Of a DNA stretch of 12,208 nt, positions 2,166 to 6,835 are shown in pieces (position 1 is the first letter of the stretch; the number at the start of each line of letters is the position of its first letter). The DNA lies in the NCBI GenBank assembly GCA_026395755.1, contig JAPLYC010000095.1, positions 1-12,208 of the forward strand, given 5' to 3'. The stretch is from Candidatus Parcubacteria bacterium. GTDB lineage: Bacteria > Patescibacteriota > Patescibacteriia > CAIXNZ01. The position numbers and the translations under genes are program-made. The notes beneath the pieces are model-generated. The model saw nothing but the letters and a program-made list of their open reading frames with translations. It ran no database searches and was not told where the DNA came from.

Positions 2166-2191
2166 TTAACAATTTTGACGACTAAATCAGC

Positions 2192-2287
2192 TTGACAAAC
2201 AATATGGTTTTTGTTAAGTTGATCTAATCCCTAAAAAGGGATATTTTGTGGTTATTTGACAATTAAAGTTTAGTTTTTAAATAGATA
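2192..2287 (+). promoter_or_regulatory. candidate promoter region for the acidic-protein/MVP cassette (two TTGACA -35 hexamers at 2192-2197 and 2256-2261 with weak -10 candidates)
   Basis: TTGACA-17 nt-TAAGTT (2192-2220) and TTGACA-16 nt-TAAATA (2256-2283). The -35 boxes are perfect but the -10 boxes are poor (3/6), so the TSS is unresolved. The intergenic region is 246 nt long and AT-rich. Confidence 0.25.
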
Positions 2288-2352
2288 TACAAGTTTGGAA
2301 AGTTAAGTGCAGATATGGCTGCACGACAGTAACCGTCACATTTTAACCGTGA

Positions 2353-2362
2353 GGGAGGAAAG
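2353..2362 (+). promoter_or_regulatory. strong Shine-Dalgarno site GGGAGGAAAG, 6-nt spacer to ATG 2365
   Basis: Core GGAGG at 2354-2358. This contrasts with neighbouring host genes, which lack Shine-Dalgarno motifs. Confidence 0.6.
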
Positions 2363-2364
2363 TA

Positions 2365-3459: not shown

Positions 3460-3496
3460 GACTTAACATCCACCTACAGAAAAGGAGAACAGGAAA

Positions 3497-6400
3497 ATGG
3501 TAGCAGAGGTCAGAAAAAGTCCATTGTTACTCGGACAGTTTGTCTGGGTGGCCAGTAAAAAGGACGGCACGATCAAGTTGATTATCGGGCCGGATCCTTT
3601 GGAAGTTACCGAAGACGATATCCCCATGATGCCCAATGCCCAGAATCCCTGGGAATTCGGGCCTGTGGAGATCACTCAAGCGGTGCAGCGCTTTGTTACG
3701 CTCAAGCCCCATCAGTACGCCGTGATTCATAATCCGGTTGATTCTGATACTGACACAGATTACCCGAACGGCAAGTACAACAAGGGCAAGAACGAGATGA
3801 AGCCCCTGAAATACGGCACCAAGAGAGTCGTGATTGCCGGTCATTTCCCGGTTTGGCCGGGACAATGGGTGGAGGTCAGAGAAATCCATCGTCTGGACTC
3901 CAAGCAATACATAACCGTCGTGGTGGAAAAAGTGCCGGTCGATGTAAAGGCTCCTTATTACGAGTTGACTGTAGCCTGCGCTGACATCAAGAAGGCAGTG
4001 GTCGATGAAAATACTGTCAGCAAAGAACCGGCCAAAGAAGTCGTCAACGAATCCGGAAACGATCCGGCCAAGGGAACAGAATCCGCTCAAAATCAAAATT
4101 CCAGTCAGCCGGCAGCTACTTCGGAAAAACCACAGGCCACAGTTCAGCCGGCAGCTACTTCGGAAAAACCACAGGCCAAAGTGCCGGAAAAACCGCAGGT
4201 CTCGCCTCTGGAAAAAGGGGTATCAGGTAAAGATCCAGATGCACCGGTTTTCAAGGTCGGACAAAGAATCATTATCCCCGGCAGCAAGACCGAGACTTAC
4301 ATTCCGCCGACCGGGATTGAGGTGGACAGGAATAAGGCTGTCAAACAGCCGGAATCCACGCGCCATCTGGATCCCAAGGAAGAGCTGCAGGATAAAATCA
4401 CGTCTGGCCAGATCAAGATCGAGACCATGGAGCAGCTTATAAAACGGGTTGGCCTGGAAGATGATCTTTTCGAGGCAGTCCGTGATAGATACACCAGTCT
4501 GCGTGAAGCAGGCAAGAACCGCAATGCTTTATATGAGGCGATCACATCGATATTCGATCGTTCTCATCTCATGAAGCTACTTTCCATTTTTATGGAAAAT
4601 ACCGCTGTCAATCAGCAGGCAACCAGAGACTCGGACGAAGCCGTGTGTGAAGCTGTGGTTTTAGGCCCCACCGAATTCTGCGTGGTTGTGGATGAAAACG
4701 GCATGCCGAATTCGCACAAGGGTCCTGGCCGGGTTTTCCCCGGTCCCAATGACACCTTCCGCACGCAGGGTTCTCGAAATCGCGTCTATGACGCCTATCA
4801 TCTGCGCGAAGATCGCGGCCTGCTTTTACGGGTAGTGGCTGATCAGATCACCAAGAAGGATCTGCTCGAGAAACTGCCTGAAGCCGTGGCCAATCAGCTT
4901 AACAAGGAAAAATACACCAAGGGAGATGAAATTTTCATCTCCGGCTTCGATGCCTACCTGGTGCCTTATTACAGCGTCTTTGAGGTCATTGACCCGGAAA
5001 CCAGGAATCCCCATATCGGTAATTCCCATGGCGGGGTTTATGTCCAGGCCATAGGCATCGATCAAAAAAGCGGTATCTACGTGATGAAAGTAGAAACCGG
5101 GGAAGTGGAACTGGTCAAGGGCAAAGCAAAGCTCCTGCTGGATCCGCGTAAACAAAAGCACATGAAACGGCGGGTACCGGGCAAGATTTGGAATCTGCTC
5201 ATCGGTTATGGAGAACCTCACAAGGCCGTCAGTCCGGACTCGGTGGTGGAATCACCCTGGGCGTTATCAGTTCAGGTACCCAATAATATGGCCATGCTTC
5301 TTACCAGTCGCACTGGCCGGCGTGTTGTTCTGGGACCTCAAACCACCTTGCTGGAGTTTGACGAATCACCTGAGATTCTCCACATTTCTGTCAATCGTCC
5401 CAAAACAGAAAAAGACACCAAACAAACGGTTTTCCTCTGGGTAACCGGCAATCGGCCGACTGACCAGGTGGAACTGATTACCGCTGACAAGGCTGTGATC
5501 AAAGTCGATGTTCAGTACGAGGTGGAATTTTCCGCCTCGGATCCCAAGGAACAGGAAAAATGGTTCCTGTACAAAAACTATGTCTGGATGCTGGCATCCA
5601 ATGCCCGCAGTCGGCTGCGCAATGCGGCCGAGCAGGTGTCGTTTGCCGTGCTGAAGGACAGCATTTCCGAATTTGTCAGGAATGTGATCCTGGGCAAAAA
5701 ACCTGAAGGCGTCGCTCATCGGCCGGGACTGCCATTTGAAACTTGCAATCTGCGGGTTACGGAAGTGGAAGTCCTGGACTGGGTGGTGGATGATCCGGAG
5801 ATTGCCAAAGCCTTGGCAACGGCCAATAAAGCGGCGGTAAACCGGGAAATTCAGGTCGGCGAAGAAAAATCCGCTCTGGAAGCGGAACAGGCCAAGGATC
5901 AAATCGCCGTGGAGAAAGCAGCTCTGGTGCTGCGTCAGACCAAGCGGTCGGCCGAAACCGAACTGGGCAAAAGACGCATCGTCGACGAGAGCGAAAAGTC
6001 GGCCTTGCAGATTTCCCAGGAGCGCGAAGCCAGGATGGCTGAGGCCGAACTTACCAAAAGCCGACTGGTTGAACAAACGGCTGCTGTCAAAGACGAGATC
6101 AACATCGAGGCAGCCAAAAGAACCGCGGCAGCTCAGCTGGAGCAGTCTCAGATCATTGACCAGAAAGCGGCCAAGGAACTGGAACTGAAAAAAGCCGCTG
6201 CTCTCAGAGATGCGGCAGCCAAGGAAGAAATCAACAAGCAAGAGCAAGCGCTGAAGAAATTGGTGGTCGAGCTTCAGCAGGAGATCGAGCTGATTCGGCT
6301 GGCAAACTGCTCTGTGCTGAGTCTCAAACAGCAGGAGCTGGATATCAAGATGTCCGATGTCAACCGTGAGCTTCACGAAAAAGACACCAGATCCCAAATG

Positions 6401-6757
6401 GCGCTCAAGGCAGAAGACGATGCCAAACTCGTGGAGTTCAGTAAGGCTTTGGCCGACATTCAGGCCGCGCTTTACACTTCTGAGGCTGAGGCTGATGCCA
6501 AGCGCATCGCAGCTCTCCAGGAAAAACTGGTGGAAGCGATCGAAGGACTGGGCAATAAGCAGGTTCTGGCTGAACTGGCTCAGCACCTGCCCGGAGCCAC
6601 TGGCACTCTCGGATTACTTCTGGGCAAAGGCGGCTTAGACGCCATCGAAGGAATGTGTGGGGGCACGAAGCTTATCGATGCCATTCACAATTTAACCGGC
6701 AGGATTCAGCAACACAAAGAGGAATCTGCAAAAGTCGGTGAGGAGTTGAAGTCCTGA
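3497..6757 (+). CDS. Major Vault Protein (MVP) homolog, full-length architecture (N-terminal vault repeat domains, SPFH/band-7-like shoulder, long cap-helix coiled coil, cap-ring), 1086 aa with a disordered insert
   Basis: Shine-Dalgarno site AAAGGAGAA 8 nt upstream of the ATG. Several segments resemble metazoan MVP as recalled from memory (no alignment could be run): N-terminal ...LKPHQYAVIHNPV... (cf. VPPRHYCTVANPV); ...TYIPPTGIEV... (cf. GTYIPRKEVEV); ...GIYVMKVETGEVELVKG... (cf. GIYVQDVKTGKVRAVIG); ...RVVLGPQTTLLEFDE...FLWVTGNRPTD...ITADKAVIKVDVQYEVEF (cf. RVVFGPELVSLGPEE...LLLGPDFFTD...[21 protein letters not shown]); shoulder ...AAEQVSFAVLKDSISEFVRNVILG (cf. [27 protein letters not shown]). 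A 180-aa A/E/K/Q-rich heptad-like coiled coil follows (residues about 780-960), then a G-rich C-terminal cap-ring-like tail. Confidence 0.9.
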   Translation: MVAEVRKSPLLLGQFVWVASKKDGTIKLIIGPDPLEVTEDDIPMMPNAQNPWEFGPVEITQAVQRFVTLKPHQYAVIHNPVDSDTDTDYPNGKYNKGKNEMKPLKYGTKRVVIAGHFPVWPGQWVEVREIHRLDSKQYITVVVEKVPVDVKAPYYELTVACADIKKAVVDENTVSKEPAKEVVNESGNDPAKGTESAQNQNSSQPAATSEKPQATVQPAATSEKPQAKVPEKPQVSPLEKGVSGKDPDAPVFKVGQRIIIPGSKTETYIPPTGIEVDRNKAVKQPESTRHLDPKEELQDKITSGQIKIETMEQLIKRVGLEDDLFEAVRDRYTSLREAGKNRNALYEAITSIFDRSHLMKLLSIFMENTAVNQQATRDSDEAVCEAVVLGPTEFCVVVDENGMPNSHKGPGRVFPGPNDTFRTQGSRNRVYDAYHLREDRGLLLRVVADQITKKDLLEKLPEAVANQLNKEKYTKGDEIFISGFDAYLVPYYSVFEVIDPETRNPHIGNSHGGVYVQAIGIDQKSGIYVMKVETGEVELVKGKAKLLLDPRKQKHMKRRVPGKIWNLLIGYGEPHKAVSPDSVVESPWALSVQVPNNMAMLLTSRTGRRVVLGPQTTLLEFDESPEILHISVNRPKTEKDTKQTVFLWVTGNRPTDQVELITADKAVIKVDVQYEVEFSASDPKEQEKWFLYKNYVWMLASNARSRLRNAAEQVSFAVLKDSISEFVRNVILGKKPEGVAHRPGLPFETCNLRVTEVEVLDWVVDDPEIAKALATANKAAVNREIQVGEEKSALEAEQAKDQIAVEKAALVLRQTKRSAETELGKRRIVDESEKSALQISQEREARMAEAELTKSRLVEQTAAVKDEINIEAAKRTAAAQLEQSQIIDQKAAKELELKKAAALRDAAAKEEINKQEQALKKLVVELQQEIELIRLANCSVLSLKQQELDIKMSDVNRELHEKDTRSQMALKAEDDAKLVEFSKALADIQAALYTSEAEADAKRIAALQEKLVEAIEGLGNKQVLAELAQHLPGATGTLGLLLGKGGLDAIEGMCGGTKLIDAIHNLTGRIQQHKEESAKVGEELKS
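4106..4183 (+). repeat. perfect-core tandem repeat 2 x 39 bp inside the MVP gene, encoding QPAATSEKPQATV / QPAATSEKPQAKV within a P/Q/A/S/T/E/K-rich linker
   Basis: cagccggcagctacttcggaaaaaccacaggcca occurs at 4106-4139 and again at 4145-4178 (34/34 identical); unit length 39 nt, in frame. It lies within a ~75-aa low-complexity insert (residues about 175-250) that interrupts the vault-repeat region. Confidence 0.9.
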
Positions 6758-6798
6758 CAGTAGAACCCAAGCTGTCAACTTCATAATTATTAACAATA

Positions 6799-6835
6799 AG
6801 CCCCATTCCGCATTGCGGGGTGGGGCTTTTTCTTA
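6799..6835 (+). terminator. rho-independent terminator downstream of the MVP gene
   Basis: AGCCCCA...TGGGGCT 7-bp GC-rich stem around a loop containing a nested CCGC-ATT-GCGG hairpin, immediately followed by TTTTTCTT (6827-6834). It lies 42 nt after the stop codon. Confidence 0.7.

Follow-up and report, generated by a model that had tools for sequence, protein, structure and literature searches.

The closest described relatives of the locus analysed here are of several kinds. Eukaryotic major vault protein (MVP) is known from rat and human (PDB structures 4V60, 4HL8 and 7PKR), and in bacteria homologues of it have been described in Myxococcales, Cytophagales and Oscillatoriales (Sokolskyi 2019, bioRxiv 10.1101/872010; that work cites Daly et al. 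2013 for bacterial MVP homologues). MVP homologues also occur on gut phages (bioRxiv 10.1101/2023.11.10.566534). The subject of this study is an MVP homologue (NTX82_06570, 100% match) encoded directly downstream of a gene for a strongly acidic protein, in the metagenome-assembled genome of a Candidatus Parcubacteria bacterium (Patescibacteria). The whole 12,208-bp contig was analysed and is called the window below. A first-pass annotation had seen in this gene pair, or cassette, a compositional island led by Shine-Dalgarno (SD) sites, and had proposed its import as a unit from a higher-GC, SD-using bacterium. Our comparison leads to another reading, which we consider probable: the pair is a self-contained accessory operon that was ancestral in its chromosomal slot and was lost twice, and its SD sites and raised GC content at third codon positions (GC3) are intrinsic and conserved, not the fading signature of a higher-GC donor.

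A patescibacterial branch of the MVP family

Domain and pairwise matches identify the large protein as a true relative of MVP. The Pfam family MVP_shoulder (PF11978) matches residues 654-762 with 61.2 bits (cut-off 25, E=1.3e-16), and phmmer aligns residues 517-910 of the query with residues 378-794 of the rat MVP chains 4hl8/4v60 (E=1.2e-21), a part that covers the last repeats, the shoulder and the cap helix of the rat protein. The families Vault_3 (21.1 bits, cut-off 28.8) and Vault_2 (18.6 bits, cut-off 23.6) score below their thresholds, and residues 267-447 match the repeat fragment 3gf5 weakly (E=4e-5). The protein thus shares with its eukaryotic counterparts the shoulder, the adjacent repeats and the cap-helix region, but the similarity is mainly limited to residues 517-910, the N-terminal vault repeats being sub-threshold in Pfam. 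It also differs from them in an insertion of about 200 residues, low-complexity and helical, which is missing from shorter members of the family (845-880 amino acids, aa). The low-complexity part includes two tandem 39-nt copies at 4105-4182, 97% identical, that encode QPAATSEKPQA(T/K)V. Unlike eukaryotic MVP, the window protein shares an operon with an acidic partner, and none of vPARP, TEP1 or vault RNA of eukaryotic vaults was seen within the 12-kb contig.

A search of 5.8 billion proteins recovered 91 further MVP homologues. Identity is 37-57% for about 80 of these, most of which come from Patescibacteria; the named sources of matches above 37% identity are all of Patescibacteria type, except one binned as Nanoarchaeia. 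No homologue in that collection exceeds 57% local or 51% full-length identity. When one genome per species was scanned, MVP relatives appeared in 257 genomes, mainly of Patescibacteria and of a large Myxococcota group at about 30-35% identity. The established prokaryotic MVP lineage that the first-pass annotation had expected is therefore borne out. The window protein belongs to the same family as the MVPs of Myxococcales, Cytophagales and Oscillatoriales but falls into a separate Patescibacteria group (37-57% identity), and we found no paper describing this group in the searchable literature. The MVP tree is star-like, and gene neighbourhoods vary even between close MVPs. The mutual nearest full-length relatives are the MVPs of the window and of locus L081, in a cluster that also includes P0003.

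MVP-family genes are likewise found on phage genomes, and thus a mobile reservoir of them exists. Three huge uncultured phages in GenBank (LR756500, LR756501 and LR756503; 462-735 kb) encode an MVP that is 29-31% identical to the window protein over 36-43% of its length. The phage-like contig L170 (281 kb) carries a short-form relative together with a T4-type RNA ligase, Thg1 and a lytic transglycosylase, and another MVP-family gene adjoins a region with recombinase, RepO and helix-turn-helix genes (L169, 1-9631). A scan of viral contigs with the MVP profile hit no more than two contigs, both very long (194 and 424 kb) and of uncertain status. The short-form group branches apart from the window protein, however, and the window itself has no phage genes by Pfam.

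The acidic partner and the operon

The partner protein contains 27% Asp+Glu and is predicted to be all-helical; it has no Pfam match, and its AF2 model (pLDDT 62, pTM 0.31) is without a confident fold. A word-indexed search recovered only the protein itself, and an exhaustive HMMER search found 33 representative relatives of about 300-360 aa, which mark it as a real protein family. In L081 it is collinear with, and 26% identical to (E=8e-27), a protein of 302 aa encoded upstream of MVP. Relatives of the partner lie directly upstream of MVP and in the same orientation in L081, L171 and L172, with L006 as a marginal fourth case. The three clear cases, among them P0095 and P0098, are all the relatives whose context was read. 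No partner relative was detectable in any Myxococcota locus fetched, and we did not find this conserved gene described in the searchable literature.

In encapsulin-type operons a cargo gene stands beside the gene for a self-assembling shell. The arrangement in the window is comparable, in that two genes would be co-transcribed, one of them encodes a shell-type protein and the smaller partner lies immediately upstream. The two systems differ in that no sequence or fold relationship connects them and no targeting peptide was identified in the window. By this analogy, the partner may be a cargo, a scaffold or an assembly factor.

The anatomy of the operon is conserved together with the pair. A block of the form TTGACAAACAA-N6-TTTTGTTAAGTTG-N4-AATCC, nearly identical in the window and L081, would act as the promoter (Table 1), and TTGACA-16/17-TAAGTT/TAAGAT also precedes the pairs in L172 and L006. 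The ATTTGACAA block of the leader could be an operator, a regulator binding site or a second -35 element. Both genes of the window have a strong SD site; the anti-SD duplex is -9.3 to -9.4 kcal/mol for the acidic-gene orthologues of L081, L171, L172 and L006, and -8.2 to -14.4 kcal/mol for the paired-type MVP genes of the same loci. The eight other gene starts of the window have duplex energies of -2.5 to +2.0 kcal/mol (Fisher p=0.022 within the window), in agreement with the earlier observation that none of these eight neighbours has a recognisable SD motif. The operon ends with the strongest match of the terminator scan of the window, and matching hairpin and T-run terminators follow MVP in L081, L171 and L172. 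Together with the AT-rich region upstream (2119-2364, GC 0.317), this terminator confirms that the pair is bracketed as first described. All copies of the pair that were examined share an SD site in front of each gene and a terminator behind MVP, and in none of them do the adjacent host genes have an SD. The same order and signals recur in at least four other contigs, in differing neighbourhoods, so the view of the two genes as one self-contained unit also stands. The operon consists of a putative promoter, an SD site, the acidic helical partner, a second SD site, the MVP-like shell protein and a terminator.

Composition of the pair follows that of the host

The compositional contrast within the window is real. 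The cassette (2365-6757) has a GC content of 0.506, the remaining contig 0.383; in 300-nt windows the values are 0.44-0.57 across approximately 2400-6750 and 0.25-0.47 elsewhere. Some figures of the first description need adjustment: its host range of 27-43% was slightly narrow, a few host windows reaching 0.46-0.47, and the approximately 52% GC given for both genes does not apply to the acidic gene, which has 0.455. On this contig, no other host genes sit at about 50% GC, and SD-like motifs are not common elsewhere. GC3 is 0.546 in the acidic gene and 0.589 in MVP, compared with 0.19-0.49 in the other genes of the window and 0.42 in the host; the MVP value is 5.9 standard deviations above host genes of at least 150 aa. 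The shift spans codon classes, with C over T at two-fold sites going from 0.18 to 0.46, G over A from 0.34 to 0.49, and four-fold sites moving too. By dinucleotide distance (delta*, x1000), cassette and host segments are 142-248 apart; host segments differ from one another by 63-124, and the value inside the cassette is 83. The MVP genes of Myxococcota, unlike that of the window, have a GC content equal to that of their flanks.

The same offset is found in L081, at a very different absolute level. There the host GC3 is 0.19 (0.18-0.21), the partner has 0.32 and MVP 0.376, with a cassette GC of 0.36-0.45; the cassette offset is +0.13 to +0.19, although the host GC3 is 0.23 below that of the window. 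Between window and L081, host, partner and MVP all differ by 0.21-0.23 in GC3. Cassette and host have therefore shifted in parallel, and the offset was kept. The codon usage of the L081 MVP is correlated with its own host (r=0.74) and not with the window MVP (r=0.09); the two MVPs do not have a donor signature in common. In a regression across 19 distinct loci, MVP GC3 follows host GC3 (r=0.82, slope 0.96±0.17) and differs from it by +0.093 on average. Of the 19 offsets, 16 are positive (Wilcoxon p=5e-4), and even the GC-richest hosts show a positive one. A slope near zero would be expected of independent imports from a fixed pool, and a slope below 1 with negative offsets in GC-rich hosts of a circulating pool. 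The proposed import from a higher-GC, SD-using donor is not borne out by these data. In recently acquired islands the composition is expected to deviate, too, but the deviation of this cassette is conserved in the orthologue and follows the host.

The SD sites are rare in this lineage but native to it. In the four genomes that share the backbone genes of the window (the window, L081, L173 and L174), an SD site precedes 4 of 61 host genes and all four cassette genes (p=1e-4). More than 90% of the genes of the lineage have A/T-rich leaders without SD, and the few SD-led genes are all GC3-rich. One of them is a small opposite-strand gene between grpE and dnaK, which has kept its position in L081, L173 and L174, with an SD duplex of -11.1 to -11.6 kcal/mol and a GC3 that is 0.10-0.19 above the host. 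Among 144 host genes of Candidate Phyla Radiation (CPR) loci, the 22 that are SD-led deviate by +0.058 from the median GC3 of their locus and the SD-less genes by -0.021 (p=3e-4); the SD-led genes include housekeeping enzymes. We found no relevant literature on SD usage in Patescibacteria.

In L167 (20754-22013, identical to L003), the genes for sigma-70 and Ham1 have a GC3 of 0.65 and 0.63 at a host median of 0.40, so strong GC3 heterogeneity among core genes exists in the phylum.

The variable slot

The three relatives were compared with the window by their backbone, which runs murF, tRNA-Glu(CTC), the slot, MazE, HlyD, ABC, MacB, MacB2, HrcA, GrpE and DnaK. L081 belongs to assembly GCA_042568725.1 and L174 to GCA_975847985.1. 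In L081, the order is murF, tRNA-Glu, the acidic protein, MVP, MazE, HlyD, ABC, MacB and MacB2. tRNA-Glu borders the slot in all four genomes, and in L081 and L173 murF is on its other side. The contents of the slot differ (Table 1): it is empty in L174 and carries other cargo in L173, and both keep the backbone without the cassette. The pair is an accessory module in a variable, tRNA-linked slot. The same slot accepts cargo of opposite compositional bias, since the L173 genes are AT-richer than their host. The operon would accordingly be part of the accessory genome of Patescibacteria, in a slot downstream of tRNA-Glu and between murF and the MazE/HlyD-ABC-MacB efflux genes, and would carry and keep its raised GC3 and its SD sites wherever it is located.

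The locus resembles tRNA-linked genomic islands in its position beside a tRNA gene, in slot contents that are different or missing in relatives and in its deviating composition. It differs from them in having neither an integrase nor a direct repeat of the tRNA 3' end: Pfam finds no integrase or transposase domain in the window, and window and L081 each have a single copy of the tRNA 3' end, with no att-type repeat of it. A plasmid search gave no match.

Ancestral operon, circulating module or import

Window and L081 are 51% identical in MVP (58% in its core), compared with 67% in murF, 48% in HlyD, 81% in ABC, 67% in MacB and 68% in MacB2. In the pair L165/L166, where synteny is kept, MVP is 64.6% identical and its neighbours 65% on average, a similar rate. 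Since MVP evolves at about the rate of its neighbours, the divergence between window and L081 fits co-inheritance of the cassette with the backbone. By backbone identity the window groups with L173 (MacB 88%, ABC 87%, MacB2 84%, murF 82%), and L174 with L081 (MacB 78%, murF 76%, GrpE 70%). Parsimony favours a history in which the common ancestor of the four genomes already carried the operon in this slot, and two of the four have since lost or replaced it.

The raised GC3 and the SD sites would most likely go with strong expression, the product being an abundant structural protein; in this lineage more than nine genes in ten do without SD. The conserved promoter, SD sites and terminator, and the association of SD with higher GC3 among host genes, speak for such a cause. 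The anatomy of the operon, the conservation of the pair with its signals, the variability of the slot and the joint GC3 shift of cassette and host are observed directly; high expression, the reason for the GC3 offset, the formation of a vault-like particle and the role of the partner are inferred.

Several observations weigh against an ancestral, expression-tuned operon. MVP core identity between window and L081 is slightly below the backbone mean of 66%, though within its range of 48-81%. Neither L173, which is the closest relative sampled, nor L174 has the cassette, so that under the topology ((window, L173), (L174, L081)) ancestral presence requires two losses. No MVP beyond the identity limits given above was recovered, although a protein database search found nine relatives with MacB at 82-89% identity, most of them on short contigs. 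The GC3 offset ranges from -0.04 to +0.30 between loci, and there are only 12 kb of this genome by which to gauge its heterogeneity. DnaK of L081 has a GC3 of 0.185 and no SD, and ribosomal protein S16 of L169 has 0.28; these classical high-expression genes speak against a general rule that highly expressed genes are GC3-rich. An Akashi-type test on nine MVP genes found no enrichment of GC-ending codons at conserved sites (odds ratio 0.8-1.16, not significant), and selection for translational accuracy is thus not supported. A gene-wide cause fits better; the candidates are selection at the mRNA level, elongation speed and recombination-associated biased conversion.

The main alternative to ancestral presence is exchange among related Patescibacteria by recombination in conserved flanks. 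In its fuller form, which we think unlikely but take seriously, the pair is a mobile module that circulates in Patescibacteria through the flanks murF/tRNA-Glu and MazE/HlyD or through phages, and entered the slot independently in the lineages of the window and of L081, its GC3 being due to frequent recombination with GC-biased gene conversion or to the average of the pool. The patchy distribution, not shared between sister genomes, the four different slot contents in four genomes and, at tRNA-Glu, the GIY-YIG gene and partial tRNA copies that point to repeated rearrangement are what such a module would leave, as are the star-like tree with its changing neighbourhoods and the MVP genes of L170, L169 and the huge phages; the GC3 excess is also even across conserved and variable sites, as biased conversion predicts. 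But no mobility gene or att repeat flanks the cassette in the window or L081, the slope and the negative offsets expected of a pool average are not seen, the other slot cargo, in L173, is AT-rich instead of GC-rich, and the two cassettes are no more alike than their backbones.

Recent import of the pair from a higher-GC, SD-using bacterium, with its signature still unameliorated, appears improbable against the reading of an ancestral operon. It would account for the contrast in GC, GC3 and dinucleotides, for the weak correlation of the window MVP with the codon usage of its own host (r=0.31), for SD sites on just two genes of the window, for a tRNA-linked slot that is empty or otherwise filled in L174 and L173, and for the lack of any MVP recovered from the closest relatives. 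It does not account for the rest. The closest homologues of both genes are not in a distant donor taxon but in the same slot of a related genome, with a divergence like that of the backbone, and nothing closer exists among the 5.8 billion proteins; the offset recurs in L081, where the cassette is not GC-rich in absolute terms; MVP GC3 tracks host GC3 with a slope of about 1; and native backbone genes also combine SD with raised GC3. Moreover, at about 50% protein identity synonymous sites are saturated, and under an amelioration model any donor bias should be gone.

That the island is an artefact, of a chimeric contig or merely of the amino-acid composition of two unusual proteins, is very hard to believe: the source is indeed a metagenome-assembled contig, and amino-acid composition supplies +0.060 of the +0.132 by which MVP exceeds host genes in GC, but codon choice supplies the other +0.072 and all of the +0.065 excess of the acidic gene, the MVP GC3 is far outside the host distribution, and a chimeric assembly is unlikely because the independent assembly L081 has the same gene order.

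Returning to the reading of an intrinsic, conserved offset, the locus is a counter-example to the practice of taking an island of GC, codon usage and SD sites as evidence of recent horizontal transfer; composition-based island callers would call it foreign in most of the Patescibacteria genomes under comparison. In these genomes a small class of SD-led, GC3-rich genes coexists with a large SD-less majority. A broader proposal, which we offer tentatively and with more doubt than conviction, is that the ultra-small Patescibacteria build vault-like compartments from the MVP homologue and its dedicated acidic partner, encoded by a portable operon that is gained and lost at the tRNA-Glu slot, and that this operon is one of the SD-led, GC3-rich minority, its island signal reflecting a second regime of translation or expression, not foreign origin. 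The analysis documents a sizeable Patescibacteria branch of the MVP family and identifies a conserved acidic partner gene of MVP; both offer a way into the question of whether bacteria form vault-like particles and what is inside them.

Other features of the window

All mapped genes of the window are on the forward strand (Table 1).

Table 1. Mapped features of the window, and contents of the slot in the four genomes compared
Feature	Position	Strand	Remarks
murF, C-terminal fragment	to 186	+	
Partial tRNA-Glu copies, two	307-379, 656-728	+	either side of the GIY-YIG gene
GIY-YIG gene	389-643	+	
tRNA-Glu(CTC)	748-820	+	landmark of the upstream edge of the slot; ARAGORN, Rfam 61 bits
PEP-utiliser mobile domain protein	811-1920	+	longest open reading frame (ORF)
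59-aa ORF	1939-2118	+	
Putative promoter	2192-2220	+	-35 TTGACA (2192-2197), 17-nt spacer, -10 TAAGTT (2215-2220); read from sequence
Conserved ATTTGACAA block	2254-2262	+	in leader, between promoter and SD of acidic gene; present upstream in window and L081
SD site of acidic gene	2353-2358	+	GGGAGG; anti-SD duplex -12.1 kcal/mol
Acidic partner protein	2365-3441	+	358 aa
Intercistronic hairpin	3446-3462	+	GTCCGCC-TTT-GGCGGAC, no T run
SD site of MVP gene	3482-3487	+	AAGGAG; anti-SD duplex -9.3 kcal/mol
MVP homologue	3497-6757	+	1086 aa
Intrinsic terminator closing the operon	6798-6836	+	hairpin 6798-6828; 14-pair stem with 9 G-C, 3-nt loop, T run
ArsR	6909-7169	+	
SdpI/DUF1648	7203-7874	+	
HlyD	7968-9791	+	
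ABC ATPase	9796-10521	+	
MacB	10526-11767	+	
Second MacB (MacB2)	from 11909	+	continues past contig end
Slot in window			PEP-utiliser gene, small ORF, acidic gene and MVP, ArsR, SdpI
Slot in L081			acidic gene and MVP only
Slot in L173	4684-7114		four small AT-rich genes, GC3 0.23-0.28 (host 0.40)
Slot in L174			empty; tRNA-Glu 93 bp upstream of MazE

The hairpin between the two genes of the operon possibly has a role in mRNA processing or stability. Its core, TCCGCC-NNN-GGCGGA, is present three times in the window (342-356, 691-705 and 3447-3461; 0.03 expected). Two of the copies are in repeats derived from tRNA-Glu, and the copy in the spacer has its loop reversed. The same hairpin is found in L173 and L174, and may be a small dispersed palindromic element of the lineage.

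Three copies of the 5' half of tRNA-Glu are present (307-341, 656-690 and 748-782), and the two partial copies hold a 30-nt double-hairpin insertion (TCCGCCAAAGGCGGACCCGCCTCTGGCGGG) in the anticodon loop. The GIY-YIG gene and the partial copies lie upstream of the tRNA and are also found in the cassette-free L174, where a degraded remnant of GIY-YIG comes after the same partial copy (6845-7188); L173 has the same insertion followed by a remnant of the 3' half (4424-4580). The copies look like an old rearrangement of the tRNA gene associated with a homing endonuclease.

A metagenome scan with MacB gave nothing above 52% identity. Its best long hit, L086, was considered as a test of the empty site and rejected, its upstream neighbourhood being different and without murF.

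The longest ORF of the PEP-utiliser protein opens inside the tRNA-Glu gene, and its real start is probably further in, for example at ATG 985; the mobile domain comprises only the C-terminal 70 residues, the remainder having no Pfam match. On the minus strand, an antisense ORF of 406 aa (5366-6586) falls within the coiled-coil part of MVP; rather than a gene, it is most likely a consequence of the opposite frame being GC-rich and poor in stops.

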